Shown: in pieces, positions 4,015-39,599 of the stretch | Numbering within the stretch: the first letter of the stretch is position 1 | How the letters are laid out: each line of letters starts with the position of its first letter | Notes under the pieces: model-generated | Database searches by the model: none | What the model was told of the DNA's origin: nothing | The model's input: only the letters and a program-made list of their open reading frames with translations | Position numbers and translations under genes: made by a program | Source of the DNA: Candidatus Eiseniibacteriota bacterium | Lineage (GTDB): Bacteria > Eisenbacteria > RBG-16-71-46 > JABDJR01 | Direction of reading: 5' to 3' | Assembly (NCBI GenBank): GCA_963783375.1 | Contig: CAWANH010000029.1 | Span: forward strand, 1 to 64,000 | Length of the DNA stretch: 64,000 nt

Positions 4015-5139
4015 ATGAAACGTACCTTCTTCCTGGCCTCAACAGGCCTAGTCGCTGGGCTCCTCTTTGCTTCGACAAGCACAGCTAGGGTCCTTAGGGT
4101 ACCGTCAACAGTCCCCACGATACCGGCGGCAATCGATTCGGCGGCAGCCGGGGACACAATCCTCGTCGCTCCAGGGACCTACTACGTCAACCTGGACACC
4201 GGTGGGAAGTGGCTTGTCATCTTGAGCGAGGCAGGTAGAGAGGAGACGATCCTGGACGGCAATAGGACCGGATCTGTGGTGGTGCTGGACGGAGGTGGAG
4301 TGATCGAGGGGTTCACTATCCAGAACGGATGGGCTGAACACTACGGGGGAGGAGTATTTGCCACTGATTATGGGCACGCACCCGCAGGAGGGCGCATTGA
4401 AGACTGCGCAATCCAGCACAATCAGGCCGGCACCTACGACGACGGTGGGGGTGGTGGAGTCTTCAGCGACCTCGGCTTCGGGCTCCTGATAAGGGGCTGC
4501 AAGATTGCCGACAATTATGCCGGTGTATTCGGCGGCGGCGTAACTACCGCTCGCGGGAGCGTGATCGACTGTGAAGTTCTGCGAAACGGATGCCATGTCT
4601 CAGGGGGCGGAATCGATGGTTGTTATGACATCAAGGACAGCCTCATCGCTGGAAACTGGTGCGATTGGTACGGGGCTGGTATTTGCAATCCAGGACGCGA
4701 GGTGATAAACAACACCATTGTCGGAAATCACAACACTGGCTATGGCGTTCAGGTAAACGGCATCTATGGCGGGGCTGGCACTATTGAGAAGAATGTGATC
4801 GCGTTCAATGTAAACCACCTGTTAGGTGACTCTGGCATAGGCGTAGCGGTTAGCCTTCAGGACTGCGTGTTCAGGTGTAATGATATATTTGGCCATCCGG
4901 ATGGAGATCTGGACTGCGGGATCGGTTGTGACACTACCGGGACCAACAATCTTTCGGCTGATCCCCTCTTCTGCGATCCAGAGAACGGTGACTACGGGAT
5001 CCGCAGTGATTCCCCCTGTCGCGCGGCGGAGAGCGATGGTTGTGGTCTCATAGGCGCTTTCGGGATTGGGTGTTTGTCAACGCCGGTCGAGAGGACGACG
5101 TGGGGAAGTCTCAAATTGCGATACGGGAGCGGCAGATGA
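4015..5139 (+). CDS. Secreted right-handed beta-helix (pectin lyase-like) protein with TWG tail
   Basis: GGAG SD; signal peptide; TIPAAIDSAAAGDTILVAPGTY; repeated GGG/N-rich coils; ADPLFCD...SDSPC; ends TPVERTTWGSLKLRYGSGR. Confidence 0.8.
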   Translation: MKRTFFLASTGLVAGLLFASTSTARVLRVPSTVPTIPAAIDSAAAGDTILVAPGTYYVNLDTGGKWLVILSEAGREETILDGNRTGSVVVLDGGGVIEGFTIQNGWAEHYGGGVFATDYGHAPAGGRIEDCAIQHNQAGTYDDGGGGGVFSDLGFGLLIRGCKIADNYAGVFGGGVTTARGSVIDCEVLRNGCHVSGGGIDGCYDIKDSLIAGNWCDWYGAGICNPGREVINNTIVGNHNTGYGVQVNGIYGGAGTIEKNVIAFNVNHLLGDSGIGVAVSLQDCVFRCNDIFGHPDGDLDCGIGCDTTGTNNLSADPLFCDPENGDYGIRSDSPCRAAESDGCGLIGAFGIGCLSTPVERTTWGSLKLRYGSGR

Positions 5140-7112
5140 ACCAACGGGCGGTCGTCACTACGATATTCATTCTCCTGGCAATCTGTATTCTTCCGCCGGC
5201 GATTTGGGCAAAGGATGACTATGGGTGCCCGGTGGAGGACCCTACCGCCTTCATGGCGCCGCTGACCGTCGACGGCGATACGATGGTAATTGCGATCCTG
5301 TTTGTCACGATAGATCCGGATAGTTTGACCTTACCCGCATGGGCTGATTCTGTTTCGCTGGATATCCGTGATTTTCTAGAGACGATGTCCGGCGGGCAAC
5401 AGGCAGTGCGATCATTTGTAGTACACAGACCAGAGCCAAGCGCAAATCTCGCTTGGCTTGTAACTGGCGTGCCGGATTGCAGTGAAGCGTATGGCTACGC
5501 CGAGGCTAATGCCAAGGCAATTGCCGCAGTTGACAGCGTATGGCCCGGCTACTGGGTTGCTGCGGACCACGTTGTTAACTTCATCGCTTGTGTATATCTC
5601 ACGTGTGTTGGTGGATGCGCTGGCGGGACTCTTGGTCTTGGCAATCTCGTGGATCCTGAAGTATATCCGCCAATGTCCACGGGATGCACGTTGACAATGA
5701 ACTTTGCCGAAGGCCGCAAGAATCCATTGGAAATTGCCATGATGCATGAATATGGTCATGGTCTGGGCGATGGAGGTAGCGAACCTGGTAAATTGCACTA
5801 TATGATACATCCCCCAGACACCTATAAGGGTAAACCCTGGAGCTACAAAGTTAATATGGGGCAATATATGCTGGTTATGAACAAGAGCTTTAAGGGTAAT
5901 CCCCGTTCTGAAGAGGGGCTGGTCCCATACATTCCGATGAATCTGCTTCTGGTCGGGAATACAAAGCGATGGTTGCCGGACCCAATTGTTGTAAGCAGTA
6001 ACAGATTCGACTTTGCTTTACCGGATCTCTACGGAACCCCTGCGAACAACCGGCGGATTGCGAAGCTGTTGTGCGCGGGAAGCAGCCAGTATTTTATAAT
6101 CGCGAATCATCAAGGACAAACAGCCTACGACTCAAAGTACGGTGGAAAGGGTCTTTCAATATGGCACATACTGCCTGACACTATCGCGGGGGTTAGGCAA
6201 CTTTATGACTTAGCTTGGGACCTTGAGGTTGCGAGTGGTAAGTGGTCTGTAGGCGTGGCGGATCCTGAAAGTGGGGTGGATAGTCTCGAAGCGGATTCGC
6301 TGTACACCGGAGGTGAAGGTGATTTGTTTTGTGGTGATGAAGGAGCTATGGAGTTCAATTGTAGGACAAATCCGAATTCTAATGCATACCGCTTTGGAGA
6401 TGATTTCTATAGCGCACAATCAACGCCCACACATGTTGAGATTAGGAACATTCATCGAGATCTTAGTGATACCACGGTTATGCGGATGGATATATTGTTT
6501 ACGCCCGTGCAAAAGGTGTTGCAACCTAATGGTGGTGAGGAAGTTGATTGGGGCGACACGGTGATTGTGGAATGGGATGTTCGGGAATGTGCCAGCGTGG
6601 ATGACGTTGGGATTTGGATTATCTCGGACAGTGGTCTAAGGGACTGTCTTGGGGTAGTGGGGAACACTGGCTCCTACTCGTTTCCGGTTCACGAACCATG
6701 CGGCGAGCAGTACCGCGTAGTAGTCGAGAGCTTCGGCCCTGACGGCACGGGGTACGCGGACAGCTCGGATGCGACGTTCACGATTAACTCTCCCTTGCAG
6801 CGAGTCCTTGAGCCAAACGGAGGGGCGGATTCTACGTATGCGCGGGGTGACGTGATGACGGTGCGGTGGGATGCCTGTGCAGATGCTCCGTTCGTTGATA
6901 TCTTTCTCACGGGAGGCTGCAGTGGCGAGGAACGGGTGCTTGCGACGGTGGAGAATTCGGGTACAGCGTACTTCAGGGTTCTGCAACCCGAGGGGAGTGA
7001 TTACAAGATTGGGGTGAGAACTGCTGTTCAAAACAACGTGTATGCCGACGAATCGGACGGGCCATTCAGAATAGAAGATCCCAGGATCTGCGGCATCCAG
7101 CAACAGCAGTAG
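5136..7112 (+). CDS. Secreted zinc metallopeptidase (M6/immune inhibitor A-like) with two PNGG Ig-like repeats
   Basis: ATGA overlap; signal peptide; HEYGHGLG zinc motif; QYFIIANHQ...YD...GLSIWHI; two repeats beginning VLQPNGGE / VLEPNGGA and ending DSSDATFTI / DESDGPFRI. Possibly 3'-truncated. Confidence 0.65.
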   Translation: MNQRAVVTTIFILLAICILPPAIWAKDDYGCPVEDPTAFMAPLTVDGDTMVIAILFVTIDPDSLTLPAWADSVSLDIRDFLETMSGGQQAVRSFVVHRPEPSANLAWLVTGVPDCSEAYGYAEANAKAIAAVDSVWPGYWVAADHVVNFIACVYLTCVGGCAGGTLGLGNLVDPEVYPPMSTGCTLTMNFAEGRKNPLEIAMMHEYGHGLGDGGSEPGKLHYMIHPPDTYKGKPWSYKVNMGQYMLVMNKSFKGNPRSEEGLVPYIPMNLLLVGNTKRWLPDPIVVSSNRFDFALPDLYGTPANNRRIAKLLCAGSSQYFIIANHQGQTAYDSKYGGKGLSIWHILPDTIAGVRQLYDLAWDLEVASGKWSVGVADPESGVDSLEADSLYTGGEGDLFCGDEGAMEFNCRTNPNSNAYRFGDDFYSAQSTPTHVEIRNIHRDLSDTTVMRMDILFTPVQKVLQPNGGEEVDWGDTVIVEWDVRECASVDDVGIWIISDSGLRDCLGVVGNTGSYSFPVHEPCGEQYRVVVESFGPDGTGYADSSDATFTINSPLQRVLEPNGGADSTYARGDVMTVRWDACADAPFVDIFLTGGCSGEERVLATVENSGTAYFRVLQPEGSDYKIGVRTAVQNNVYADESDGPFRIEDPRICGIQQQQ

Positions 7113-7593
7113 TTTCAGCGCTGATCAAGACATGCTCTTGTTCAGGAGCTGATCGAGCACTGTGGTGTCGAAGGCAGTACTTGGTCGGACCGTGACTCTC
7201 AAGCGGTCAGTGTTTGTCACATCACGCGCTGTGCTGCGTGTAAAAGAGCAGGCGTCACCTGGCGAGGCGATAGGGGTCAACGTTTCCTTCGTGCCCACCC
7301 GAAAACGCCCCGAAATCGAGGGACGCGCATGTACCCGCTTGAAATCGGACGAAATCGCGGCGCCGCTAATCTGTTGCCTGCAATGACTTGTAGACCCCCC
7401 CGAGCGGCGTGCAGCCTGACGGCTCCCACCGTCAACGTTTGTGCCCACTCGAAATGAGAAGAGGCCGCTCCTCCTGTCAGCATTACTCCCACAACCCAGG
7501 GGGGTTGCGAGCAACAACTGCACACCGGAAATCGGCCTTGGACGGCCGGAATTCACATCTTCCTGACAACTCGCCCAAAACCCGCGACCCCGC

Positions 7594-7617
7594 TAACCCA
7601 TTGATATCAATAGCTTA
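7594..7617. promoter_or_regulatory. Palindromic double IHF-consensus site
   Basis: TAACCCATTGATATCAATAGCTTA matches WATCAANNNNTTR on both strands, at the boundary of the lower-GC cluster. Confidence 0.4.
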
Positions 7618-7750
7618 TACGACCCGCCCGAACTTGAGTGCAGCCTACCGGAACCCACGAGTTGCGGGAGTGCATACTCAAGAGCCGCGCGCGATCCCCA
7701 CGAAGCAGCCAAAGCGGGCGGGCACCGCCCGGCCCGGCGGACTCCGCCGA

Positions 7751-8968
7751 TCAGGCGCTGACCACCGTCAATTCACCCTCGACCGCCTCGTTGACGGGAG
7801 TGTCGTAAGGATCCGCCGACGACTCGTCGGGCATCGGAACGGCGACCATTCTCGCGAGTTTGCCCGGAGCCAGCGACCCCGCCTGGTCCTCGAACCCCAG
7901 GGCGCGGGCGCCTCCCATCGTGGCCATGCCCACGATGGCCTCCGCGGGAGCCTGGGGCCAGAGCGCGCGCACCCGGCGCATTTCCCCCCAGATGCCAAGA
8001 TCCCGGTTGCTCGCCCGGCTGTCCGTCCCCAGACACAAACGAACTCCCCGCTCGAACATCGTCCGCACCGGGGGAGCGGGAAGGCCCAGGAACTCGTTGG
8101 AGCGGGGACAGAGGCAGAGGAATGCCCCCGAGTCCGCCACGCTCCCGATGTCGGTGGCGGTGAGATGGACGCCGTGGACCAGTAGGGCACGCGCATCCAA
8201 CGCGCCCGCCGCGGCCAGCATCGCCGCCGCCGGCTCTCCGGGAACCGGGAACCTCCCGTCCCATACTCCAAGGGATTCCAGGTACTTGCGAACCGGCCCG
8301 GTGCCCTCGGTGAGGAACCGGTCTTCACCGGGGGGCTCTCCGACGTGGCTGGACCAGCGCAAACCCCGATCCCGGCAGAGCGCCGCCATCTCCGCCCAGA
8401 GCGGCGGCCACACCGAGTAGGGGGCATGGGGGGAGAGGCCGGGGCGGACACCCCCGTCCGTCGGCAGGGCTCCGGCGCGCTCCACCGAGGCCTCGAACCG
8501 GGTCCGCCCCCGTTCCTCGCTCACCCCCAGGAACTCGAAGTACACCCGGGCCAGGATCCAGGGATCGGCGGCCAGCGCCGCCACCCCCTCCGCACGGGTC
8601 GTGATCTCGCCGACCAGCGCCGTCCCCAGCCTCCGGCACTCGGCCAGGCCCGCCTCCACCCCGGCCACGACCGCTTCCGGGCTCATCTCCGTCGCCGCCC
8701 GGGCGGTGCTTCCAAGCCAGCCGAAGAAGTCGCCCTCCCGCGCGCGCGGTTCGATCAGGGCGCTCAGCGAGAGGTGGGTGTGGGCGTTCACCAGGCCGGG
8801 CATGAGGATCGCGCGGCCGAGGTCGTGGACCTCGGCCTGGGGGGACGCGGCGAGCACCGCGGTCTCGGGGCCGACCGCGGTCACCCGGTCGCCGGAAACC
8901 GCCACCGCGCCGTGCGCGATCGGGGGGCTTACGATCGGCAGGACCCATCGGGCTCGATAGATCTTCAC
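7751..8968 (-). CDS. Amidohydrolase family protein (nucleoside deaminase-like)
   Basis: GGAGGAG SD before GTG; MPGLVNAHTHL; SPHAPYS; SHVGE; LVHGVHL; CPRSN; LGTDSRASN. Confidence 0.85.
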   Translation of the reverse strand: MKIYRARWVLPIVSPPIAHGAVAVSGDRVTAVGPETAVLAASPQAEVHDLGRAILMPGLVNAHTHLSLSALIEPRAREGDFFGWLGSTARAATEMSPEAVVAGVEAGLAECRRLGTALVGEITTRAEGVAALAADPWILARVYFEFLGVSEERGRTRFEASVERAGALPTDGGVRPGLSPHAPYSVWPPLWAEMAALCRDRGLRWSSHVGEPPGEDRFLTEGTGPVRKYLESLGVWDGRFPVPGEPAAAMLAAAGALDARALLVHGVHLTATDIGSVADSGAFLCLCPRSNEFLGLPAPPVRTMFERGVRLCLGTDSRASNRDLGIWGEMRRVRALWPQAPAEAIVGMATMGGARALGFEDQAGSLAPGKLARMVAVPMPDESSADPYDTPVNEAVEGELTVVSA

Positions 8969-9133
8969 ACTCTCCTCCACCGGCGCCGGGCCGGAAAGCC
9001 GCTCCACCTTGCCAGAGGGCGTGGGGGCGGGCAACGGGAGAACGGCGCACAATTCTCTGGCCTCCGGCCTGCCGCGCTTGTAACATATTGCCCCCTAACA
9101 TCTTGTATTCTGAAAGCGAGTGGAGTGGCCAGC

Positions 9134-9556
9134 ATGTCCGAACCGGCAGCCCCGCCCCCTGAGTGGGAGGCCCGCGAAGCGCAGCGGATCTACCGCGCGC
9201 TTTTCGGCGGGGCGATCCCCGAACCGGTGCGGGAGCGTTTCATCCGGGCCTCGCGCCGGCTCGACGCGTGCGCCGAGCCGTCCGACATGGCCACGTACCG
9301 CCGCGCCCTGGATCGGGTGGGTGACCTGGAGGCTCTGGAGATCGCCTGCCGGTACCGGCGGATGCTTCCCCTCCTCAGCCGGAAGTTCCGGGTCATGGTG
9401 GCCGTGGCCGAGACCGTGCCCGAAACCCAATCGCACTTCGTGAATGAACACTCGAGCCTCCTTCGCGGGCTCGCCGTGCTCGCCGCCGGAGGGTTCCGTT
9501 CGGTGGGAAAGCTGGCCAAGGGGCTGATGCTCCAGGGGAAGCTCGGCCGTGATTGA
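9134..9556 (+). CDS. Hypothetical protein
   Basis: GGAG SD; host-like codon usage; stop overlaps the start of the next gene. Confidence 0.6.
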   Translation: MSEPAAPPPEWEAREAQRIYRALFGGAIPEPVRERFIRASRRLDACAEPSDMATYRRALDRVGDLEALEIACRYRRMLPLLSRKFRVMVAVAETVPETQSHFVNEHSSLLRGLAVLAAGGFRSVGKLAKGLMLQGKLGRD

Positions 9557-11181
9557 CCGGACCGCCCCCGACCGCGCGGGAGGATCGCCCGGTGCATGAC
9601 GTGATCGTTGTCGGCTCGGGGGCCGCCGGGGTGGCCGCCGCCCTGGAACTTGCCGAGCGCGGCCGGAAGCCGCTCATCCTCGACGTGGGCCACCGCAAGG
9701 TCGAGCGCATTCCGCGGGTGGAGGAGAACCTCTACCTGCACCGCCGCCGCCACGACACCTACCGGCTCCTGATCGGGGACGAGCTCGAGGGGCTCTCCAA
9801 CCTCCTCACCGACCGCCACGTTCCGGTCAAGCTCACCACCCCCAACATGGCGTACGTGACCCGGGACGCGGAGTGGCTCTCGCCGATCGAGGAGACCGAC
9901 TTCAGGACCGTCCAGAGCTTCGCCGCCGGGGGGCTGGCCAACGCCTGGGGCGCGGGCCTCTATCGGTTCGTCGACGAGGACCTTCAGGGTTTTCCCATCA
10001 CTGCCCGGGACCTGGACCCCTACTTCGACGCTCTCACCCGGGAGATCGGGATCGGCGGAGAGGAGGACGACCTCACCCCCTTCTTCGGTTCCACCCGCGA
10101 TCTTCGCGCGCCGCTTCGCCTCTCCCATAACATCGAGAAGCTCTACCGCGGCTATCGCCGGCGCCGCGAGGCGTTTCACCGGGATCGCTTCTTCCTGGGA
10201 CGCGCGCGGGTGGCCGCGCTCGGCGAGCCCATGGACGGCCGGCCCGCGATCGACTACTCGAACCTCGAGTTCTGGCAGGACACCCCCGCCATCTATTCCC
10301 CGCGCCTCACCCTGGACAAGCTGATCGCCGCCGGCCGGGTGGAGTACCGGAGCGATATCCTGGTGGAGTCCTGGCGGGAGACCGGTGAGGGGGTGGAGGT
10401 GTGCGGACGGGACCTCCGCGACGACACCGGGGCGGTCTTCTCCGCCCGAAAGCTCCTGCTCGCCGCCGGAGCGGTCAATACCACCCGCATCGTCCTTCGC
10501 TCGTTCGAGGACACGGAGACCGAGCTGACTCTTCTCGAGAACCCCGCCCTCCAGGTTCCCCTGGTGCTTCCGGGAAGTCTGGGTCGGGCCCTGGACGTCC
10601 ACGCCTTCGGCCTCGTCCAGCTCAACCTGGTCTGGAAGTCCGCATCCTATGGATGCACGGTCCAGGGGAGCATCATGGAGATCACCTCCCCGGCGCGGGC
10701 CGAGTTCTTCGAGAGCCTGCCCCTTGCCGGGCGGGACAACCTGGGTCTCATGCGGATGCTCCTTCCCGCCATGATCGTCCTGCAGCTCTTCTTCCCCGGC
10801 CGGGCCCACAAGCCCTCTCGGATCTCCCTCCGCGCCGACGGGGGATTGCGCATCCAGGGCCATCCCAACACCATCGACCTCGGTGGTCTGACCCAGTTTC
10901 TCGCCCATCTCCGCCGGGCCGGGGCCTACACCGTCCTCCCGCTCATCGTTCGCGTGCCCATGGGGCACGCCATCCACTACGCGTCCACGCTCCCCATGCA
11001 GGTTGCGCCGGAGCGCTACCAGTGCGACCCGGCAGGACGCCTGGCCGGGACCCGCGAAGTCTTCGTGGGAGACTCGGCTTCGTTCACCGATCTTCCGGCC
11101 AAGAACATGTCCTTCGCCATGATGGCCAACGCCATGCGGATCGCTGCCGGGGTGGCCCGCGAACTCGAGGAGGGCGCATGA
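9553..11181 (+). CDS. FAD-dependent GMC-family oxidoreductase
   Basis: DVIVVGSGAAG; GGLANAWGAG; LAAGAVNT; IHYAST; VFVGDSASF...MANAMRIA. Confidence 0.85.
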   Translation: MTGPPPTAREDRPVHDVIVVGSGAAGVAAALELAERGRKPLILDVGHRKVERIPRVEENLYLHRRRHDTYRLLIGDELEGLSNLLTDRHVPVKLTTPNMAYVTRDAEWLSPIEETDFRTVQSFAAGGLANAWGAGLYRFVDEDLQGFPITARDLDPYFDALTREIGIGGEEDDLTPFFGSTRDLRAPLRLSHNIEKLYRGYRRRREAFHRDRFFLGRARVAALGEPMDGRPAIDYSNLEFWQDTPAIYSPRLTLDKLIAAGRVEYRSDILVESWRETGEGVEVCGRDLRDDTGAVFSARKLLLAAGAVNTTRIVLRSFEDTETELTLLENPALQVPLVLPGSLGRALDVHAFGLVQLNLVWKSASYGCTVQGSIMEITSPARAEFFESLPLAGRDNLGLMRMLLPAMIVLQLFFPGRAHKPSRISLRADGGLRIQGHPNTIDLGGLTQFLAHLRRAGAYTVLPLIVRVPMGHAIHYASTLPMQVAPERYQCDPAGRLAGTREVFVGDSASFTDLPAKNMSFAMMANAMRIAAGVARELEEGA

Positions 11182-16968: not shown

Positions 16969-17706
16969 ATGAACCCTGGCAACCGCATCCCGTTCATCCT
17001 CGTGGCGGGCGTGTTCCTTCTCGTCCTCGCCGTGGCCTCGGCCGCGGCGGGCCCGCCCGTTCCCGGAACCTACAAGAGCATCGACCTGCCCGGAGGGACC
17101 ATCCTCCTCGGCCACGCCAGCGAGTCCTGGCCGGCGACCGGAACCGGCGGCCAGATCGGCAACACCCAGCACGGCGCTTCCTGGGACGGAACCACGCTGG
17201 CGACCCAGTGGGAGGTCTCGTGCCCGGCGATCTGCGTCGCCCCGGTCATGATCCTGAATACCGTGAACGGAAACGGCGACGGGCAGGTCATCTACCAGAC
17301 CGGCTACTGCGGAGGGACCATCACCCTGAACGGAACCGGTGAGGCCTGGGACGGAGGCGACGCGGTCTACACCGCCACCATCGAGAGCTACACCGACATC
17401 ACCACGTTCCAGTACCAGGGCGGGACCATCACCGGTTCCGTGACCAACATCAACGTGCAGGCATCCATCGACGGATACGACGACTGCGTGGAGTTCGCCA
17501 TCGGGAACGCCGCTGGAATCGCATCCACCGACTATTTTCCTTTCCCGGCCGACTACCCCTGCCTGCTCGACCCCGGTACCTGCACCTGTGGGCGGACCCG
17601 TGGGGGATGGGGTGACGCGACCGGCATCACCCTGAACATCGTCGGTGGTTGCACGGTGCCCACGGAAGCGACGACCTGGGGACAGCTCAAGGCGCGGTAC
17701 GAGTAG
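16969..17706 (+). CDS. Secreted Thr/Gly/Cys-rich protein with TWG tail
   Basis: GGAGG SD; signal peptide; ends TVPTEATTWGQLKARYE. Confidence 0.8.
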   Translation: MNPGNRIPFILVAGVFLLVLAVASAAAGPPVPGTYKSIDLPGGTILLGHASESWPATGTGGQIGNTQHGASWDGTTLATQWEVSCPAICVAPVMILNTVNGNGDGQVIYQTGYCGGTITLNGTGEAWDGGDAVYTATIESYTDITTFQYQGGTITGSVTNINVQASIDGYDDCVEFAIGNAAGIASTDYFPFPADYPCLLDPGTCTCGRTRGGWGDATGITLNIVGGCTVPTEATTWGQLKARYE

Positions 17707-18058: not shown

Positions 18059-20587
18059 ATGGCGAGCCAGCCCTACATCCCCATCCGACCGCGCGATCCG
18101 GCCGAGCGCTACCGCTTCAAGTGCCGCCGGCTGGTGTGGCGGATGGTGCACGGCACCCGTGCCGCGCAGGTGGTGGAGCGCGAGCTAACCCTTCGGCTGG
18201 CCCAGACCCTTGCCGGTCTCCGCGCGGAGGAGCGCTACCGGAGGCTCGGCCACGTTCGGTTTGCCGACTTCTGCCTCGAGGTGTTGCAGCTCCATCCCCG
18301 CACCGCGCGTCGCCACGTGGCGCTCTGGGATGTTCTCTCACGTGTCCCTTCAGCGAGAACGGCGTTTCTTGCCGGCCGGGTGGACGTGAGCCGCATCCTG
18401 GCGTTGCGCACCGTCCTGACCGGGGCCACGGCCCCTGCTTGGCTTGCCCGGGCCCAGGGCGTGCCGGTGCGCGAGCTTCGGGAGTTGGTGAAGGCAGCGC
18501 GGTCCGGCCTGGAGGGGGATGGCGGGGAAAGTGGAGAACTGACTGGAGGCGAAGAGGAGAGGGGAAGCGGAGAGACAGGCCCGACCGGGGGGGTGACGGG
18601 TAACGGAGAGGTGGCGGGAAGCGGAGAGGGGACGAGGAGCAGCGAAGCGACGGGGAGCGGAACTGCGACGGCGGGCGAAGTTGGACATTCGAAGACATCG
18701 CCGGAACCGCCGCCGGTCCGGTTCACCGACCAGGATCTCGAAGAGCCGGAGCGGGAACGGATCACGTTCCTGGCCCCTCAAACCTCCGGCCTCGCCTTCG
18801 AGCACGCGCTCGAGACGGGTCGGCGGTTGCTCGGGTGGGATGCGCCCGCCGATGCCTGCCTGGATGCGATGCTGGCCGAAGCGGAGACTTCGGCGCCCTG
18901 GCTCGTGGGTGGGGTCGGCGATCCTCCCGGGGAGAACGAGGCTCCTGGGAGTGGGGGAGTGGGCGCGGCCGCGCCCGTCGATGACACGCACGGCCATGAA
19001 ACGCCGATGACCCGCGTAGGGGATGAGCCGCCGGCCACGCCGGGCTGGGCTCCCGGCGGGCGGTTGCCCTGGGCGGATCGTCCGTTCGTCTCCGCGAGGC
19101 GGTGGCGCGTGCTCCGGGGGCTGGAGGCTCCAGGGGTGCGGCGTCGGATGAACGGGGGTCCGGGCGCCTGGGATCCTTCCCGGCACCGCTACGACTACAA
19201 GCGCGCCGCCCACGCCTTCTCTAGCTTCCGGCGGGTGCTTGGGAAGGCGGAGCGGTTGGCGGCCGCCCGGCCGGATGACCCCCCGGTGACCGAGGCCCGG
19301 GCGCTTCTCGCTCGCTACCTGGAATTGGAGGCTCTGGGGCGGCCCCTCTTCGTGGCCCGGACGAGGCTCCTCTACCACCTGGACGTGCTGCACGCCGGCG
19401 CGCTCTTCGGGCTCGACACCACGGACGCCCTCGCGTCCCGGTTGCTCGGTCTTTCCGAGCGTGCCGCGCTCGAACACTACTGGGCGGGATGCCAGTTCCA
19501 GTTCGACCACACGATCGCCGACGCCTACATCCGCGGCGACATCGGCCTGAGCCATGTCGTCAACTGGAAGTTGCAGTCGGCGTCGACCGGGACGGGCTGG
19601 ATCCGGCGGGCCCGGTCGGTGACCTGCCGTCAGCTCCGGCGCGAAATGCAGTTCCTTCGCCGACTCAACGAGGTCCTGACCGCGGGACCCTTCGGGCCGC
19701 CGGAGCTGCTCCCGGATCCCGCGGTGGAGGCGGCCCTGCGGAAGCGACTCTTCAAGGCGGGATGGGGTCCCGGCAAGCTGGATCGGGAACTGGAGCAGCG
19801 TGGTCTCCTGGATCCCCCCGGTGCCTCCAAGGACCCCGCCGAGAACCCGGCGGTGATGGACCGGCTCGAAACGATGCTCGACATGGTGATCCTCTCGATA
19901 TGCCGGACCGTCTCGGACGACGACCCCGAAGTCCGATACCGGAAAACGTTGTCCACCCCGGGGCGCCACCACCGGGTGGTGATCTGGGCGCGACCGGAGA
20001 TCCGCGAGCGATGGGGACGAGCCTGCCGGGCGGTCCGTCGGGTGACCGGGGCCTGGCCCGAGTGGGCGGTGGCCGTTCTGGTCGCGCGGGTGGCGATGAA
20101 TGAGTGGGAGCGCCAGGATCCCGACCGCACCCCCACCGAACGGCGGATATTGGAGCGGGACGGCTACCGGTGCCAGGCTCCCGGATGCAGCAGCCGGAGC
20201 GGCCTGGAATCCCACCACATCCGGTTCCGCTCCCAGGGTGGGTCGAACACTCCCTCGAACCGGGTCACTCTGTGCCATGCCCATCATCACCACGCGATCC
20301 ACGCGGGCACGTTGAGGGTCAGCGGCCGCGCGCCCCATGCCCTCCTCTGGGAGTTCGGGTGCGCTCCCGGGGCCGGACCGCTCTGGGTCTACCGGGGCGA
20401 GCGCCTGGTACGAGGACCGGGGCGGGTCTCCCGGGGTCCGTCGAGGCGGGAGCCGGATCGGGCGGCCCGGCCGGGGGGACGGCCGGACCGCCGATCAGGC
20501 TTGGATCGAACCGCGACCGGTCAGGTTCCCACCTTGACCAGCCGGACCGCCGCGGACCGCCCCTCGGTCTGGATCCTGCAGAAGTAG
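18059..20587 (+). CDS. Large HNH endonuclease-domain protein (DUF222/13E12-like architecture)
   Basis: C-terminal ILERDGYRCQAPGC...SHHIRFRSQGGSN...NRVTLCHAHH; N-terminal YRRLGHVRFADFCLEVL helical region; 3' end overlaps the convergent cytochrome gene by 67 bp. Confidence 0.75.
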   Translation: MASQPYIPIRPRDPAERYRFKCRRLVWRMVHGTRAAQVVERELTLRLAQTLAGLRAEERYRRLGHVRFADFCLEVLQLHPRTARRHVALWDVLSRVPSARTAFLAGRVDVSRILALRTVLTGATAPAWLARAQGVPVRELRELVKAARSGLEGDGGESGELTGGEEERGSGETGPTGGVTGNGEVAGSGEGTRSSEATGSGTATAGEVGHSKTSPEPPPVRFTDQDLEEPERERITFLAPQTSGLAFEHALETGRRLLGWDAPADACLDAMLAEAETSAPWLVGGVGDPPGENEAPGSGGVGAAAPVDDTHGHETPMTRVGDEPPATPGWAPGGRLPWADRPFVSARRWRVLRGLEAPGVRRRMNGGPGAWDPSRHRYDYKRAAHAFSSFRRVLGKAERLAAARPDDPPVTEARALLARYLELEALGRPLFVARTRLLYHLDVLHAGALFGLDTTDALASRLLGLSERAALEHYWAGCQFQFDHTIADAYIRGDIGLSHVVNWKLQSASTGTGWIRRARSVTCRQLRREMQFLRRLNEVLTAGPFGPPELLPDPAVEAALRKRLFKAGWGPGKLDRELEQRGLLDPPGASKDPAENPAVMDRLETMLDMVILSICRTVSDDDPEVRYRKTLSTPGRHHRVVIWARPEIRERWGRACRAVRRVTGAWPEWAVAVLVARVAMNEWERQDPDRTPTERRILERDGYRCQAPGCSSRSGLESHHIRFRSQGGSNTPSNRVTLCHAHHHHAIHAGTLRVSGRAPHALLWEFGCAPGAGPLWVYRGERLVRGPGRVSRGPSRREPDRAARPGGRPDRRSGLDRTATGQVPTLTSRTAADRPSVWILQK

Positions 20588-22038
20588 ATCCCGGCCGGCA
20601 TCGCCCGGCCTCCCTCGTCGCGACCGTCCCACACCAGGGTGTGGTGGCCGGGGGTCTGGGCGCTCCGGGTGAGGACGCGCACCTCCCGCCCATTGGCGTC
20701 GTAGACGGCCAGGTGGATCGGGTCGTTGCCCAGGACCTCGTAGCTGATCTCCGTCCGGGCCCCGAAGGGGTTCGGGGAGGGCATGACTCGCGCGGTCACC
20801 CCATTCCCGGGAAGCTGATCGCCCACCCCGGTTACCACGAACCCGTGGGGTCCGGCTCCGGTCGGGGTGTAGCCGTGGCACACGTCGCAGCGACGCAGGG
20901 TGCCGGTCGCCCCCTGCAGCGCCACGGTCTGCCGGTTGTCCCGCTCCTCCCGTGAAGGGAGGATGGCGTGGGGGCTGTTGTGGCAGGTGGGACAGTACAG
21001 GTTTCCGTGGCCGTTGTTGGAATTCCGGTAGAGGGTGTTGGCGGCCTCGGCGTAGGTGGAGCCGTGGCAGGTCTCGCACCGGGGCTCGTCGAGCCACGGC
21101 CGGCGGCCGTCCTTGATCGATTCCGCCACGTCCCGCACCGACCCGTGGCAGTTCTGGCAGACCAGGTGGAAGTCGGTGGCCATGGTTCCGCGCAGGCACT
21201 GGGTGTTCGGCCCGGGATGACACTGGTAGCAGTTGTTGGTCTCCTCGGCGTGCTGGTCGTGCATGGCCTCGGACAGGCTGGGGAGGCCCGGGGTTCCCGG
21301 CGCCCCCAGGGCGTTGCTGGCGTGGCAGCTTGCGCAGAGGACCGGGGTGCTGGTGGCCAGATGGGTCCCATTCTCCTCGTCGTGAAGCCGGAGGATCGAG
21401 TGCTCGACGGTTTCTCCGGTCCGCGGATGGTGGCAGTTGGAGCACATCATTTCGGTGGAGATCGGGGCCACGATCTCCGTAGACGCCAGGAGCGCCTGGG
21501 AGGCGTCCCGGGCCTCGAGCTCCGCGAGCTGGAAGGGCTGCTTGTTCACCAGATCGCTGTCGGTGTATTCGGTGAGCGGAATCCCCTCGGCATGGAAATG
21601 ATCGGGGGCGGCGTCCATGGTGCCGGTGAGACCCCGTCCGGTGAGCCCGATGTTCGGAGGGATGGTCGTCCCGAAGATCTGGGAGGCGTAGGTCCAGAAG
21701 TCGGTCTTGCCCACCGAGTAGGTGTTGTCCTGGAACCGGTAGCTCACGGTGATGTCCGAGGTCACGACCTCGGGGAGGCGAGCCGGGTCCCCTCGGCGGA
21801 TCACCGTTGCCCAGAGAGTGTTGTAGGGGGGTAGAACCGTGAGGTCCTGGAACCGCGCGTTGGCGCAGTGCATCCCCAGGTCGTTCCAGCCGATCAGGAT
21901 GTAGTCGCCGGTGGCTGCGGTTGCGAGGGTGGGAGTGGGGGCGTTCTGAGCTCGGGACACGGGGATCGGGAGGGTCTGGAGCAGGAGAATCGCGAAGAGA
22001 GGCAGGAAGTAGCGGGCGAACGGGCTCGGGACACGCAT
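20521..22038 (-). CDS. Secreted multiheme cytochrome c (7 CxxCH) with C-terminal FlgD Ig-like domain
   Basis: GGAGA SD; signal peptide; WNDLGMHC; CSNCH, CASCH, CYQCH, CQNCH, CETCH, CPTCH, CDVCH; then PSPNPF...YDANGREVR...WDGRD...AGIYFCRI. Confidence 0.9.
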   Translation of the reverse strand: MRVPSPFARYFLPLFAILLLQTLPIPVSRAQNAPTPTLATAATGDYILIGWNDLGMHCANARFQDLTVLPPYNTLWATVIRRGDPARLPEVVTSDITVSYRFQDNTYSVGKTDFWTYASQIFGTTIPPNIGLTGRGLTGTMDAAPDHFHAEGIPLTEYTDSDLVNKQPFQLAELEARDASQALLASTEIVAPISTEMMCSNCHHPRTGETVEHSILRLHDEENGTHLATSTPVLCASCHASNALGAPGTPGLPSLSEAMHDQHAEETNNCYQCHPGPNTQCLRGTMATDFHLVCQNCHGSVRDVAESIKDGRRPWLDEPRCETCHGSTYAEAANTLYRNSNNGHGNLYCPTCHNSPHAILPSREERDNRQTVALQGATGTLRRCDVCHGYTPTGAGPHGFVVTGVGDQLPGNGVTARVMPSPNPFGARTEISYEVLGNDPIHLAVYDANGREVRVLTRSAQTPGHHTLVWDGRDEGGRAMPAGIYFCRIQTEGRSAAVRLVKVGT

Positions 22039-32324: not shown

Positions 32325-32550
32325 GGTCAATCGGGTTTTCCCATCGCGGCGGATTACGTATCCTGTTGGTTCCGCATTCCGCTCCGGGAACGCGCGAACC
32401 CTGCGGATCGCGGGGGAGCGGTCCGTCGTTTCGGGTGCGTTTCGGGGAGAACCGGGGGCACGGTTCCCGAATCACGATTTCGCATCATCAAGGGGACAAC
32501 GCACAGAGCCAGTCTGGCAGGTTTTTCGGCCCGAGTCCAGGAGATCCCAT

Positions 32551-33330: not shown

Positions 33331-34373
33331 ATTTCCAGGTCGCCGGAGCCGGACCCCCGTTCCCGCACCGTCCCGTCCCCGAAGTCCAGGATGTCCTCGA
33401 AGCGGCGCCGGAACGTGTCGGGGTCCATCCGCTCCGGGCCGACGCCCCGTTCGCGCGCCTCCTCCAACAACGCCAGCACCCGTTCGTTCACCGGAGCGTC
33501 CAGGCCGTGGGCCCGGGCGAGCCTCACGATCTCGCCGTGATAGAAGTCGTTCTCCAGCCGCGGACGGCGGTGATGGAGGTTCTGCCAGGTGGAGTTGTAC
33601 ACGCCCCCGGTCGTGTCGGGGGGGGAGCCGCCGGCGCGAAAGCGGGCGAGAAGCTCCTCCACGCCCTGCCCCAGTCCCGAGGCCGGCTCGGGCCGGTACC
33701 CCGCCGCCCTGAGCGCCCGGCGGCCTTCTTCGAGCACCGCCACCTGCACCCGGGCCAGAGCCGGCTCTGCCCCGGTGCGCTTCATGAGCACCGGGGGACC
33801 GCTCACCAGGTTGACCAGGAGCTTGAGCGCCTTGTCCGCCCCGATCTCCGGCGACTCCGCCGCGGTGAATCCGGCCGCGGCCAGATCCTCCACCAGCGCC
33901 TCGGCAAGCGCATCCCGCCCCCGCGGATACCGGCCCACAATGAGCTGGCCGGGACGGCGGAGCCGGACCTCCCCCGGATCGAGCAGGGTGGCGGTGAACC
34001 GAACCACCCCGCCGTAGAGCCGGGGACAAAGTGGGGCGGCGGTCTCCTCGGCCCGGATGCCGTTCTGCCAGGTCACCACCGCCCGGGTGCGGGCGGCCTC
34101 GGAGACGGCCGCCGCGGCGTCGGCCGCGTCGGGAGCCTGGACGGTGATGAACAGCACGGCGTCGCCGGGAAGCTCCGCCGGGAGGGCGGTTACCGCCAAG
34201 ACCGGGGCGATGAAGGTCTCGTCCCGGGAGACCGTCCGGAGTCCCCGGCCGGCCCGAATGGCCTCCGCGTGGGCGGGGCGGGCGACGACGGTCACCGGGT
34301 GCCCCCGCCGGGCCAGGTAGGCGGCGAGCGCCGATCCCACCGCCCCCGCTCCGTAGACGACATAGGGTCTCAT
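33327..34373 (-). CDS. Ketopantoate reductase family protein (PanE/ApbA)
   Basis: YGAGAVG; WQNGI; KLLVNL; NSTWQ; LEND...GEIV. Confidence 0.8.
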   Translation of the reverse strand: MRPYVVYGAGAVGSALAAYLARRGHPVTVVARPAHAEAIRAGRGLRTVSRDETFIAPVLAVTALPAELPGDAVLFITVQAPDAADAAAAVSEAARTRAVVTWQNGIRAEETAAPLCPRLYGGVVRFTATLLDPGEVRLRRPGQLIVGRYPRGRDALAEALVEDLAAAGFTAAESPEIGADKALKLLVNLVSGPPVLMKRTGAEPALARVQVAVLEEGRRALRAAGYRPEPASGLGQGVEELLARFRAGGSPPDTTGGVYNSTWQNLHHRRPRLENDFYHGEIVRLARAHGLDAPVNERVLALLEEARERGVGPERMDPDTFRRRFEDILDFGDGTVRERGSGSGDLEI

Positions 34374-34446
34374 TCCCCCGATTGTAGGATCGGGCCTCGA
34401 ACCGTGCTACCGTGTAGTCGGGCTCACCACCCGCGAGGGCGGCACC

Positions 34447-36977
34447 ATGAACCGGTTTCGAGCGGCAATCCTCTTCCTCATTCTCTTCCTCTCGTTCAAC
34501 GCCTCCCCCGCCCCCGGAGAGGTACCGTCGGGGGCGTTGGATCCCGCGCTGCGCGCCCTGCTCGATCGCTCGCCCGAAGCGGCGGGGGGAGTTCTCTCCG
34601 AGGCCGCGGCCGGACGTCCGTCGGTCATCCCGCTCAGCCTGGGCTCGGCGGTGATCCCCGGGAATCCCCCCCGGCTCGAGGTCTTCCTGCGTGGGACGGA
34701 CGGGGGGGTTCCCGGCGGGCCCGGGGTGGACGTCATCCCGCTGGGGGACGGCCTCTACGGAGGTCTCGTCACCCTGGACGGCCTCCGCCGACTCCTGGCC
34801 GGGGAGGGCATCGCCGCCGCCCGCCTCTCCCGACCGGTTCAACCCGCCCTCGACCGGAGCGCCGCCTTCCTGGGAATGAACCTGATCCGGCGTCAGAACC
34901 CCCAGACCGGCGGATTCAGCGGCATCACCGGCAAGGGGGTGCTGGTGGGGCTCGCGGACAGCGGCGTGGACTGGAACCACCCCGACTTCCGCAATCCGGA
35001 CGGCACCACCCGGTTCGCCTGGTTCTGGGACCAGACCGTACCCTTCGGCCGACCCCCCCAGGGCTACCCGGTGGGGGAGGAGTACGACGCGCGCCTGCTC
35101 AACGGCGGCATCGGCGCCGCCTACGATCCCTCCGGCCACGGCACCCACGTGATGGGGATCGCCGCCGGAAACGGACGGGGTTCCCTGGTTCCCGGACGGG
35201 GGGCGCTCTACGTGGGCATCGCCCCCGAGGCGACCCTGATCGGGGTGCGTATCTCCTTCACCGAGCTGGGGGTGGCCATGGCCGCGAAGTACTTCTTCGA
35301 CAAGGCCGCTGAAATGGGCATGCCCGCGGTGCTCAACCTCAGCCTGGGAAACCAGTACGGTCCCCATCTGGGGGACACCCCCCTGGAGAATTCCCTCGAG
35401 AGCCGGGTCGGGCCCGGGCGGCTGATCGTGGCCGCGGCGGGCAATGATGGCGACCGCGATCTCCACGCCTGGATGGAGGTCGGGACCGGCGAATCCGACA
35501 CCCTCACCGTGGACCTGCCCCGCTACTCCAGGGACGGTTCGTTCAACTACGTCGACTTTGCCGGATGGTTCGACGTCCGGAACCGTTACCGATTCACCGT
35601 GCTCGACCCCGCCGGGGAGGCGGTGGGGGTCCTGAACTGGGGAGACACCGACGCGTCCTTCCAGAGCGGTTTCGGGGAGGTCCGGGGTTGGAACACCGAG
35701 GATATCGGGTACGGAAGCGTCCTGGTGGAAATCGCCGATGACGACAAGAGCCCGAGCCTGGCCGTGGGGGAGTACAAGCTGGTGGTGGAGGGGGTGGACG
35801 TCACCACCTCGCCCCGGGTCGATTTCTGGCTCGTGAGTTGGGTCAACAACCGCGACCGGGAGCCCAGCTTCCTCGACCACGCCGACCGCCGGGAGACCGT
35901 GCTGAACCCGGCCACCGCGCCGCACATCCTCGCGGTGGGCGCCCTCTCCACCCGGTCCTGCTGGACCGACGTGACCGGGAAGGAGCGTTGCTACACCACG
36001 CCCCCCGCCTACGGCGCCGTCGCCTACTTCTCCAGCCTGGGTCCCTCCGCCGACGGGCGCGTGAAGCCGGAGGTGCTGGCGCCGGGTTTCGGGGTGGTCT
36101 CCGCCCGGTCCTCCAACATCGACCCCGACGCCTACGATCCGGACCTGCTCAAGACCCTGAGCACTCCCGATCGTCTCTACTGGGTGAATCAGGGCACCAG
36201 CATGGCCGCGCCCCACGCCACCGGCACGGTGGCGCTTCTGCTTCAGCGCTTTCCGCGCATGACCTACGAGCAGATGGTCGGCCGGCTGACCTCCCGCTCC
36301 GAGCCCACCCTCGATCCCCGCACCGGGGATCAGGACCGCGCGCTTTTGACCGGGGAGGCGGTGGCCCCCATGGTCCGGATTCTCCTGTCCGAGGTCGAAC
36401 CGGATCCGGCCGGCGTTCGGATCCGCTGGTTTGCGGGCAAGAGCCGCGGCGAGACCCACTATCGGGTGTACAAGGGGTTCTCGGACCGGGGCCCCTTCGA
36501 GGCCCTGAACAGCGCCCGCATCGAGGGGGAGAATCCCTACGAGGTGGTCGACTCCCATCCGGAGCCGGGGCGGACTCAGGTGTACCGCATCGCCGTGGCC
36601 GACCGGAGGGGCCTGGAAGAGGACCTAGACACGCTCCGGGTGGACGTCACCGGCACCCCGTCCCCCGTCCTGCGCGCTCCCGCGCCCAACCCCGCCGCGG
36701 GCCCGGTGTCGGTGAGCTTCTTCCTTCCTCCCGGCGGCGCGGGGGGGAGTGGCGTCTCACCGCCTACGACGTCGCCGGGCGGCGGGTGGCGGTGGCGGCG
36801 TCGGGGGAGTTCGGGCCCGAGGGGACCGAGGCCAACGCGGTATGGGACCTCCGGCGGGACGACGGCCGGCGGGTGGCCGGCGGCCTGTACTTCCTGCGCC
36901 TCGACGCCACGACCACCCGGGCCGACGGATCGACGGCGTCCCGTACCTTCAGCCGGCGGGTGGCGGTGCTTCCGTAG
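34447..36977 (+). CDS. Secreted S8 subtilase with C-terminal FlgD-like domain (frameshifted in G7 run at 36741-36747)
   Basis: DSGVD, GHGTHVMGIAAG and GTSMAAPH catalytic triad; PAPNPA. One extra G joins it to WRLTAYDVAGRRV...WDLRRDDGRRVAGGLYFLRL. Confidence 0.88.
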
Positions 36978-37112
36978 ACCGGATCCAGGTCGGTCCGCTG
37001 GGTCTGCCCGGGCCCTCGAGCTCTTGCCCCGCGTTGCCCGTCACCAACCGCACCGCCCGCGCACCCTCGGTGAACCCGGGAGCGCGGACAGGACAGGCTC
37101 CCGGAAAGGCAG

Positions 37113-38384
37113 TCAGTCCAGGTCGCGCTCCAACACCAGCAGGGTCACGTCGTCCTGGAACTCGGCGCGGATCAATCCCGAGGCGGTTCGCAGCACGAAG
37201 TCCACCGATTGATCGAGGGGAACTGCATGTGCCTCGTCGAGGGTGCGGGCGAGAAGGGATGTCGAGAAGATGGAGCCGTCCGGGCACTGTGCGTCGATTA
37301 TCCCGTCGGAGTAGAGCCACAGTCGGTCCCCGGGCTGCAGGAGAAGTCGGTTGGACCGGATGGGCTCGGGGACGGCGAAGTCGGGACCGATGAGGGTTCC
37401 GCTCTCTTGGTCGCTCATGATCTGCACCGAGTTGCGCCCGGTCAGGATGGGGGGTTCATGACCGGCCGACGCCCAGGCGACCTCGCCAAGCGAGACGTCC
37501 AGAACGCCGTAGATCAGGGTGAAGAAGAGGCCCGTGCGTTCGGTGTCCGTGAAGTGTGCCCGCAGGGACGAGAGAACATTCATGGGAGTAGCCACTTCAT
37601 AGTAGGGCGGGCCAGGTAGTTTGCATTTCACGAGCGTGTTTTGCCCGGGCACCGGAATCAGGAGGCGAGACACTGTAATCGCAAGCATGGCCGCCGCCGC
37701 CCCGTGCCCCGAGACATCAAGGATGAAGAAGCCGATTCGTCGCTCATCGAGCCGGAACACGTTCAGCATGTCCCCGGACACATGCGTGCACGGCTTGAAC
37801 CGCCATGCGAACCGGTACGCTCCCAAGGTTGGAGCGTCGAGTGGCAGCAGGGCTCGTTGGAGGGTCGCCGCCGCCGTGAGATCTTCCCCGAGTGTCCGGT
37901 TCTGCTCGAGGAGTCGCCGGTGTAGGTGGACGATTCGCTGCCCGGCTTGGATGCGTACCCTCAGCTCCTCGGTGTTGAATGGCTTCGCCAGAAAATCGTC
38001 TGCTCCCGCCTCGAGGCCTTCTACCAGGTCGTGGTCGTTTCCCCGGCCGGTGAGGATGATGGCATAGACGGACTCTCCATCTCTCGTAGCGCGGATGCGG
38101 CGGAGAAGGCCAAGCCCGCTGAGCTTCGGCATGTTCCAGTCGGTGATGACGAGACTGAACCGTTCTCGTTGGAGAAGGTCCCAGGCTTCCTCTCCATCCG
38201 TGGCCGTGAAGACGGAGAACCCGAGTTCACCAAGCATGCCGGCCAGGACGTCGCGGACCCCAGCGTCATCATCGACGACCAGGATGTGATCCAGATCGCC
38301 GCCGGGCAGACGTGACGAAGATTCGGGAAGGACGTGTCCGCCCAACTCGGGATTGGGGGGGGACAGTTTGGGCTGGGGCATCAC
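37113..38384 (-). CDS. Response regulator with PP2C/SpoIIE phosphatase domain (RsbU/RsbP-like)
   Basis: LVVDDD, ITDWNMP, GADDFLAKP; SGD, DVSGHG, SAGH, YSDGI, QDDVT. Confidence 0.92.
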   Translation of the reverse strand: MMPQPKLSPPNPELGGHVLPESSSRLPGGDLDHILVVDDDAGVRDVLAGMLGELGFSVFTATDGEEAWDLLQRERFSLVITDWNMPKLSGLGLLRRIRATRDGESVYAIILTGRGNDHDLVEGLEAGADDFLAKPFNTEELRVRIQAGQRIVHLHRRLLEQNRTLGEDLTAAATLQRALLPLDAPTLGAYRFAWRFKPCTHVSGDMLNVFRLDERRIGFFILDVSGHGAAAAMLAITVSRLLIPVPGQNTLVKCKLPGPPYYEVATPMNVLSSLRAHFTDTERTGLFFTLIYGVLDVSLGEVAWASAGHEPPILTGRNSVQIMSDQESGTLIGPDFAVPEPIRSNRLLLQPGDRLWLYSDGIIDAQCPDGSIFSTSLLARTLDEAHAVPLDQSVDFVLRTASGLIRAEFQDDVTLLVLERDLD

Positions 38385-38861
38385 CTCGGTCTTCGGAACA
38401 AGAGAGCCGGGCCATTAGGTGTCTTTCGGACCTGCAATTGCCTGGCCTCCCGACCGGATAACAATGCAGTGTGATAGGACCGATCTGGTGCCTACGCGCG
38501 GATCCGATCCCCGGGTAGGCACCCGTCATCGGTCCTTCGGCAATGTCTCCCGCGCGCGGGTCGTAATAGCCTGCTGTAGCTAGGGGCGGCTGAGGGTGGG
38601 GGCGGGCGAAGGCCGTATCGTTCCAATGCGACTTCGATGTACCGGGTGATCCGCGTGGGGCGCAGTCGGCGGGTTCCGTCGGTTGCGTTTTTACTGAACC
38701 CAGACCCAGAACTGTCTCATATGGGTTGACGACGTGCAGATCCTCCGATCTCGTGGAGCTTGATTCAATCAGGCTCGACACCACTACTGCCAGGCGTTAT
38801 ACTTCTATCGGCAAGAGTGCCATCGTATCCCCAGGTCATCCCCTTTCACCTAGGAGGAACG

Positions 38862-39599
38862 ATGTTCAACAAGCTACGTGTCCTCGGCCTCTCTGTCGCC
38901 CTGGTCCTCTCATCTGCATGTTTCGTCGTCCCTTCGACCTATGCCTCCTGCCCCTGCGTCGCCCCCAACGTGGGTGGAACCGTCGCGCTGATGCCGGTGA
39001 CCTGCACCACGGGGTACGTCGGGTTCATGCAGATCACCGACGGGTTGCCTGTCGGTACCACCATCGACTGTCAGGCGGAACTCGGCGGCTTCTATCTCAC
39101 CTCCGAAGCGGTCGGTGGGACGCTGGGTGGTTATATTCAAACCTGGAGCGCCTATCTCCACCTGGAGATGACTGGAACGGGAGCCCTGGCCGGATTCAAC
39201 CGTTCGCTGCAGATCCCGGTATCCGGCCTAACCAATTCCGCACCCCGGACGTTCGGAGACGCCGTCCAGTCGTTCGCCCACAATCTGATGACCCTGGACG
39301 GCCAGCTGGTCGGTGATCCGGATTTCGAAAACCTGGCGGTGAAAGCGGGCCCCAATGAGAGTCTGCCGCCCAGCCCCGGGTACACCTCCCTGACCCGGGT
39401 AGGCCCCCCGGGCAGTGACTTCCAGGTGGACAGTTTCTTCGACGTCACCTATACCCTCGATTTCACCGGTGCGCCCGGAAGTGTCCTGGATGGCCTGTCC
39501 GGGATCACCCAGGACGCCCAGCGGCTCCAGCTTTGCGACAACCCCGTCCCCGTTCAGAACGCGACTTGGGGTCTTATCAAGGCGCTCTATCGGTTCTGA
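38862..39599 (+). CDS. Secreted hypothetical protein with TWG tail
   Basis: AGGAGG SD; signal peptide; VDSFFDVTY; ends PVPVQNATWGLIKALYRF. Confidence 0.8.
   Translation: MFNKLRVLGLSVALVLSSACFVVPSTYASCPCVAPNVGGTVALMPVTCTTGYVGFMQITDGLPVGTTIDCQAELGGFYLTSEAVGGTLGGYIQTWSAYLHLEMTGTGALAGFNRSLQIPVSGLTNSAPRTFGDAVQSFAHNLMTLDGQLVGDPDFENLAVKAGPNESLPPSPGYTSLTRVGPPGSDFQVDSFFDVTYTLDFTGAPGSVLDGLSGITQDAQRLQLCDNPVPVQNATWGLIKALYRF

Follow-up and report, generated by a model that had tools for sequence, protein, structure and literature searches.

In the PEP-CTERM/exosortase, LPXTG/sortase and GlyGly-CTERM systems, many unrelated exported proteins are marked close to the C-terminus by a short conserved motif. 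Similarly, the type 9 secretion system (T9SS; SprA, PorV, PorU) reads a terminal address, the Ig-like type A C-terminal domain (CTD; TIGR04183/PF18962), on unrelated cargo made with a Sec signal peptide. Other envelope systems use large barrels with a partner protein inside (LptDE and MtrAB), two-step export via a dedicated barrel (type XI secretion, Slam), or donor-strand complementation, in which a partner peptide completes an otherwise unfinished fold by placing a strand into an Ig fold (chaperone-usher pili). Here we analyse a 16-residue motif, the TWG tail, seen in a 64,000-nucleotide stretch of DNA from a Candidatus Eiseniibacteriota bacterium (assembly GCA_963783375.1, contig CAWANH010000029.1, positions 1 to 64,000 of the forward strand; hereafter the window). 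The first-pass annotation had proposed that this tail is a second, minimal export or anchoring signal whose machinery was still to be named. A candidate for that machinery was found: an NTF2-like lipoprotein family, encoded next to a conserved barrel that is predicted to be an outer-membrane pore, has the motif as its native end helix. We give an even chance to the reading in which the tail docks in one of these lipoproteins, lipoB, and the cargo is likely passed to the cell surface at the barrel.

The tail is a real signal without a catalogued family. A two-round (iterated) hidden Markov model (HMM), run against 66,863 six-frame segments of the source genome, gave 75 matches of at least 12 bits, in contrast to a single match (maximum 13.0 bits) in the reversed-sequence control, and the recurrence seen in three window proteins thus extends genome-wide. 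The 74 open reading frames (ORFs) scoring at least 14 bits were kept for counts, and 71 of their tails are distinct. The consensus is [VT]P[VT]Ex[TS][TS]W[GS]x[ILV]Kxx[YF], with Gly or Ser after the Trp (57 and 14 tails, respectively) and a Lys in 71 of 71, although the seed pattern already demanded the Lys. In 69 of the 71 distinct tails the motif is terminal, with 0-13 residues between the Tyr and the stop. It contains no transmembrane helix, as had been claimed, and unlike PEP-CTERM, LPXTG and GlyGly-CTERM it is followed by neither such a helix nor a basic cluster, and nothing points to inner-membrane cleavage; the three window proteins have no match to any of these families in NCBIfam. Pfam and NCBIfam hold no family for the tail above cut-off, a PDB sequence search with the tail profile returned no match, and no description of the motif or of the operon discussed below was found in the literature searched, which left subscription journals mostly outside. 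The tail is reminiscent of the first helix of LysM; a LysM identity was rejected, as none of 66 tails matched the Pfam LysM profile at E up to 1 and the tail comprises only 16 residues. Several tail ORFs in the source genome are only short pieces of a gene or lie in a different frame from the gene body, which suggests assembly indels.

The three tails of the window lie at the ends of ORFs whose N-termini are all hydrophobic:

Positions 4015 to 5139, plus strand: cargo 1, a 374-residue exported protein with a weak NosD/beta-helix-like match and a TWG tail (29 bits)
Positions 5080 to 5139, plus strand: TWG tail of cargo 1, 19 residues and stop
Positions 16969 to 17706, plus strand: cargo 2, a 245-residue exported protein with no Pfam match, one of three paralogs, with a TWG tail
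Positions 17656 to 17706, plus strand: TWG tail of cargo 2, 16 residues and stop, for which docking in lipoB is predicted
Positions 38862 to 39599, plus strand: cargo 3, a 245-residue exported protein with no Pfam or NCBIfam match, with a TWG tail
Positions 39546 to 39599, plus strand: TWG tail of cargo 3, 17 residues and stop

All three have a Cys 3-5 residues ahead of the Pro, as the first-pass annotation had observed, yet this residue is not a general part of the tail. A nearby Cys precedes 34 of the 74 tails genome-wide, compared with a background of 12%, and is thus enriched and optional; an invariant Cys was rejected on the same count.

The tail is borne by proteins that are otherwise unrelated. 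The 66 called cargo bodies longer than 100 residues fall into 40 BLAST groups, and the proteins ending at 17706 and 39599 belong to different ones; the protein ending at 5139 stands outside the grouping because it was missed by gene calling. In Pfam searches of 37 carriers a minority displayed scattered domains (for example LTD, Big_5, beta-helix and cohesin-like). By a crude heuristic score, a signal-peptide-like N-terminus is present in 59 of 69 called tail genes and 89 of 115 CTD genes, compared with 1091 of 3226 other genes (34%), and in other genomes in 69 of 73 closed tail ORFs (heuristic, with best-start choice). The annotation had also proposed the tail as an alternative to the FlgD-type CTD. 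Indeed, a CTD HMM built from the same genome marks 128 ORFs and none of the 74 tail ORFs, and among the tail carriers scanned no CTD family in Pfam or NCBIfam was matched. Exactly five ORFs of the window are capped by such a CTD (here FlgD_ig PF13860-like), none of them with a TWG tail:

Positions 1396 to 2442, plus strand: ORF with a FlgD-type CTD at its end
Positions 20521 to 22038, minus strand: ORF with a FlgD-type CTD at its end
Positions 35838 to 36977, plus strand: frame with a FlgD-type CTD at its end, probably the frameshifted end of 34447-37212
Positions 39933 to 41642, plus strand: ORF with a FlgD-type CTD at its end
Positions 41867 to 42601, plus strand: ORF with a FlgD-type CTD at its end

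The two classes differ in size, with a median of 223 residues for the 69 called tail genes and 666 residues for the 115 called CTD genes. It could be argued that the tail is a chance likeness, or that it contributes to the folding of the cargo domains, as the Cys near many tails suggests that the segment ahead of the tail often closes the last domain. The nearly empty reversed control and the 40 unrelated cargo groups argue against this, as does a family of anti-sigma-like proteins in which 18 of 42 homologs bear the tail while the remaining 24 lack it at their ends; we find this explanation scarcely credible.

The proposal that the tail is strictly C-terminal did not survive. In a 223-residue exported protein (G000:C28:1279421-1280092, minus strand, L003), the motif follows straight after the signal peptide, at the mature N-terminus, and is kept there in 3/3 homologs; the C-terminal part of this protein is Cys-rich and hydrophobic. 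The second of the two non-terminal matches (C13) was not called as a gene. Another unusual carrier is encoded at G000:C28:1952951-1954739 (minus strand, L002), where a gene for an extracytoplasmic function (ECF) sigma factor (Pfam r2 and r4) overlaps one for the membrane-anchored anti-sigma-like protein referred to above, which ends in a TWG tail. The view of the tail as a minimal alternative to the CTD thus stands in part: it is portable, is found on exported proteins, never occurs with a CTD here and serves a smaller size class; strict C-terminality and the Cys do not hold.

The origin of the tail is visible in an operon outside the window (G000:C28:943210-946654), which follows an rsmA-like gene and encodes a barrel and two lipoproteins, lipoA and lipoB. 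In 20/20 relatives' loci lipoA lies after the barrel gene, as it does in further loci long enough to show this. The lipoA protein has no Pfam or NCBIfam family above cut-off; its predicted structure (predicted local distance difference test, pLDDT, 92) is NTF2-like, the best VIA match being 3rob_A (Z 14.2, root-mean-square deviation, rmsd, 2.6, 123 aligned), with which Foldseek agrees. The end helix, residues 173-180, is ordered and modelled at a pLDDT of ~97, and it is this helix that corresponds to the TWG motif. A pattern of W-x-D followed by a [TS][WLF]G-x-L[RK]-like helix is found in 121 of the best 150 of 1,425 family hits, and the strict cargo motif in 20 of the same best 150. Two fusion proteins (P0164 and P0138) have two or three NTF2 repeats with a TWG-like helix after each repeat. 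The first-pass annotation had reasoned that a motif forming a structural part of one known fold would not be a signal; that concern is touched on here without being borne out, since the helix is native to an undescribed lipoprotein fold and is a free add-on in the 40 cargo groups.

LipoB (G000:C28:945968-946654) is a paralog of lipoA that frequently lacks this helix. The helix is absent from 15 of 29 lipoB rows, and in the other 14 it is carried on a tether of 21-51 residues; the tethered helix of the source-genome lipoB has Leu where cargo has the invariant Lys. Asp57 (92%), Asp/Glu72 (100%) and Asp161 (100%) are the only conserved acidic columns, and all three lie in the predicted interface with the tail. 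That lipoB is often without its helix and yet keeps the groove residues suggests that the groove stands vacant for a helix supplied in trans. A PDB sequence search with the lipoB profile gave no relative (best E 0.19), and in the Atlas lipoB falls in unnamed clusters only. The lipoprotein family is expanded to 1-9 matches per genome, with 6 in the source genome, including helix-less paralogs away from the operon. Three tandem lipoB paralogs lie behind lipoB (G000:C28:946861-948916, plus strand, L001), with canonical TWG tails on tethers of 25-29 residues, and a tail-less paralog is present at C3:195412-195981.

Docking of the tail in the lipoB groove is likely, judging from the predicted complex. 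When lipoB residues 8-165 (tether excluded) were modelled together with the C-terminal 31 residues of cargo 2, the complex scored 0.93, compared with 0.03 for the best of three controls; the mark used for this score is reached by 116 of 157 solved pairs and by 2 of 215 mismatched pairs. At least 95% of contacts are shared between runs, with a partner pLDDT of at least 66, and contacts are confined to tail residues 16-31, which are the motif. In the predicted pose the E-x-T-T segment of the tail pairs with lipoB strand 127-130, the Trp and Gly are placed at Asp161 and Phe51/53, and the Lys lies over helix 72-79. The prediction supports binding between tail and lipoB and falls short of showing it. 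Unlike in chaperone-usher pili, the predicted donation is of a helix into an NTF2-like fold and not of a strand into an Ig fold, and Pfam and NCBIfam gave no match to a chaperone-usher or Slam family. As the inner-membrane anti-sigma-like protein also carries a tail, the groove would face the periplasm, and this protein may act as a sensor for the state of the docking machine.

It could be argued, however, that the likeness to the lipoprotein helix is a matter of ancestry only, and that the tail has some other reader, such as a peptidase, a transpeptidase that employs the Lys, peptidoglycan or lipopolysaccharide. The Lys that is invariant in cargo is matched in lipoA by a variable position (Arg 82, Lys 26, other 38), indicating that the cargo is under a constraint of its own. 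A helix-less lipoB that retains its groove residues would nevertheless need a ligand in trans, and the tail and the lipoprotein family share their range in three phylum samples (below), which make such an inherited likeness very improbable as the whole explanation.

The barrel gene is single-copy in the genome and has no Pfam or NCBIfam family above cut-off. Its predicted structure (pLDDT 93) has 28 long strands by our own count and no plug. In a comparison bearing on the MtrB/PioB family and TonB-dependent transporters, Foldseek returned generic barrels (template-modelling score, TM, 0.26-0.42), the best listed being MtrB (6r2q_B; TM 0.42, rmsd 11.3), and the Atlas recognises the barrel weakly (1528). 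The locus is similar to LptDE and MtrAB in having a large barrel, predicted to be plugless, co-encoded with partners, although the MtrB match signifies a big barrel only, and the partners here are NTF2-like, with neither a cytochrome nor an LptE-like protein. The backbone diameter was estimated by formula, with the shear assumed, at 53-56 Å, compared with 37 Å for a sphere of 200 residues. The size bias of the tail carriers fits such a pore and favours export, or surface display, through the barrel. We place export through this particular barrel at slightly under an even chance.

An alternative is that docking occurs without export, lipoB and its paralogs binding the tail as a non-covalent anchor, in a dockerin-cohesin-like manner, while the barrel performs another task such as lipoprotein or lipid handling. 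The docking prediction and the conserved groove residues would serve this arrangement equally well, and it is also consistent with the expanded lipoB family, with a tail that may stand at either end of a protein or on a membrane-anchored one, and with the retention of the barrel in a family that has few cargo proteins (f9, below). NTF2 domains of cell-wall enzymes are, moreover, among the VIA fold neighbours (Csd6, Z 13.1, rmsd 1.9, 117 aligned; Bd1075, Z 11.5, rmsd 2.0, 110 aligned). In contrast, with ~70 cargo types for 6 lipoprotein matches, a receptor used repeatedly is more fitting than an anchor that holds a single protein; the difference in size between the two classes calls for an explanation, for instance a limit set by a pore; and the barrel gene is fixed beside both lipoproteins. 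Anchoring alone therefore appears unlikely.

The tail and the lipoprotein family co-occur in two phyla. The sample of the bacterium's own phylum comprised 121 genomes of at least 90% completeness, with up to 71 tail candidates scored per genome. The tail was found in 113, the lipoprotein family in 119 (by a profile that also catches lipoA), the barrel in 112, with 3 more recovered by fetching the locus, and SprA in 115. In a second phylum (centre G164, n=61) the counts were 51 for the tail, at a stricter E, and 59 for the lipoprotein. In a third (centre G169, labelled Gemmatimonadota, n=61) they were 1 for the tail, 0 for lipoB and 50 for SprA; neither tail nor lipoB was found in the other 60 genomes of this sample, 49 of which have SprA, and no operon was present at four rsmA loci. 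A scan of DNA for the tail pattern, biased to its P-x-E style, gave at least 120 loci, mostly labelled Eisenbacteria, Krumholzibacteria or Latescibacterota. From these, 40 genomes were picked, of which 34 match lipoA, 2 more lipoB and 1 more the barrel. Record labels and Atlas taxa indicate Eisenbacteria and Krumholzibacteria. These genome sets are related and partly overlapping, and do not represent independent tests. A sole match in a viral collection (IMGVR_UViG_3300032516_003530, L296) is a phosphoesterase-like ORF with a canonical tail at its end, and may be host DNA.

The source genome also encodes SprA, four PorV-like matches and six C25 peptidase matches. It is possible to envisage the barrel and lipoproteins as a branch of the T9SS, a dedicated carrier like PorV or PorP/SprF for a minimal signal, with cargo that leaves via SprA and may be cleaved by one of the C25 peptidases. 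The tail resembles the type A CTD in that a Sec signal peptide is combined with a terminal address on unrelated cargo, in its predicted reading by an outer-membrane partner, in its presence in the same genomes and in its short opening word; the T/V-[GAPS]-V-like word that opens the tail also stands ahead of 67 of 125 CTDs, compared with a background of 93 of 515. With respect to type B, PMC12398890 indicates that the PorP/SprF carrier could keep cargo bound at the surface, and a dedicated carrier is similarly proposed here, the barrel having a weak profile match to PorP/SprF (TIGR03519; E 1e-4). This match, however, reaches 21.9 bits, far below the curated cut-off of 90.55, and weak matches are limited to 3 of 36 rows. 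Besides being single-copy, the barrel, with 28 predicted strands, is far larger than PorP, which PMC12398890 describes as eight-stranded, and tail binding is predicted on the lipoprotein and not on the barrel. In contrast to the type A CTD, the tail is a strand-helix peptide and not an Ig-like domain, never shares a protein with the CTD in this genome, and its predicted reader is an NTF2-like lipoprotein beside the barrel. A cleaved C-terminal signal is hard to reconcile with carriers that have the motif at the N-terminus or are anchored in the membrane, and 49 SprA-bearing genomes of the third phylum are without tail and lipoB. We thus regard a T9SS branch as distinctly unlikely. For Poribacteria, PMC3909097 reports T9SS-type CTDs without the machine, and its account of these makes no mention of the TWG motif. 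At G000:C29:136830-151739 and 68899-79142 lie clusters that comprise C25 peptidases, a PorV-like barrel, several small barrels and a 1125-residue barrel-like protein.

Under the export reading, the cargo, some 70 small exported proteins, would enter the periplasm via Sec. The tail would then add a strand to the lipoB sheet and lay its helix in the mouth of the NTF2 fold, where the degenerate tethered helix of some lipoB proteins may act as a displaceable placeholder that is pushed out. LipoA and lipoB would associate with the barrel, placing lipoB probably at the predicted 28-strand outer-membrane pore, and the docked protein would likely be handed to the cell surface, folded domains of ~200 residues passing the pore. 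This full sequence of steps we rate at even chances or somewhat below.

Several observations weigh against this reading. The model may have learned this helix from its packing in cis in lipoA-like monomers, and the high complex score could stem from that, a point that would equally favour ancestry alone, and because our own alignments were used the calibration of the score holds only roughly. In lipoA, the acidic and basic residues covary by count (108/11/0/27, top of 102 columns); on the tree this amounts to only two changes of the basic residue, and the covariation was therefore not used as independent support. Large tail carriers exist, although they are few (854 and 860 residues). As SprA is present in most genomes of the own phylum, tail and T9SS cannot be told apart by their distribution there. 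Nor is true loss of the operon seen: of the nine barrel misses in this phylum, three are search misses, and of the others four have rsmA at a contig end, one lacks rsmA and one (G104) was left out. As the profiles were trained on tail-bearing phyla, a lack of matches in other phyla may come from low sensitivity. In family f9 the profile finds 0-4 tails, and yet the operon, with a helix-less lipoB, is intact; a proposed loss of lipoB in this family was rejected for that reason. One cargo family is kept in 5/5 of the tail-poor f9 genomes examined (L249, L250, L251, L255 and L257), and may represent core cargo; a look-alike in the source genome (G000:C3:207433-208070) has the tail in another frame. 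Finally, 3 of the 40 genomes from the pattern scan (G131, G153 and G169) have a tail and no operon gene, as ancestry alone would allow, and the rsmA locus of G169 is intact without the operon. The tails of these exceptions lie on short contigs (1.7-12 kb) and may be misbinned. Those of G169 (C68 and C75; L294 and L295) are three canonical tails on contigs of 9-12 kb with lower GC content (0.62-0.63 compared with 0.66), two of the carriers being Cys-rich repeat proteins.

Two further genes of the window may be recorded. An exported HEXXH-motif protein with neither CTD nor TWG tail is encoded directly behind cargo 1 (5040-7112, plus strand), and a 120-residue Lys/Ala/Thr/Arg-rich repeat protein of histone-H1-like make-up at 61930-62292 (plus strand).

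Tentatively, and at rather less than even chances, the data may be read as describing a new secretion system that stands beside the T9SS in uncultured phyla related to the Fibrobacterota-Chlorobiota-Bacteroidota (FCB) group, and that comprises a 28-strand pore, two NTF2-like lipoproteins of which one is self-complemented and the other an empty receptor, small folded cargo that donates a helix derived from the fold of the machine itself, and an ECF anti-sigma with the same helix as a monitor across the periplasm. The address is a copy of the end helix of the receptor's own family, its origin still visible in the sequence. The key step can be reduced to a 16-mer peptide and a 160-residue domain, and is thus accessible without culture; so short a tag-receptor pair could also serve as a protein docking tool. 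If the export reading is correct, signal, receptor and pore would have been named for an undescribed envelope sorting route that handles tens of proteins per genome in at least two uncultured phyla, and the division of exported proteins by size between two tags would be explained.

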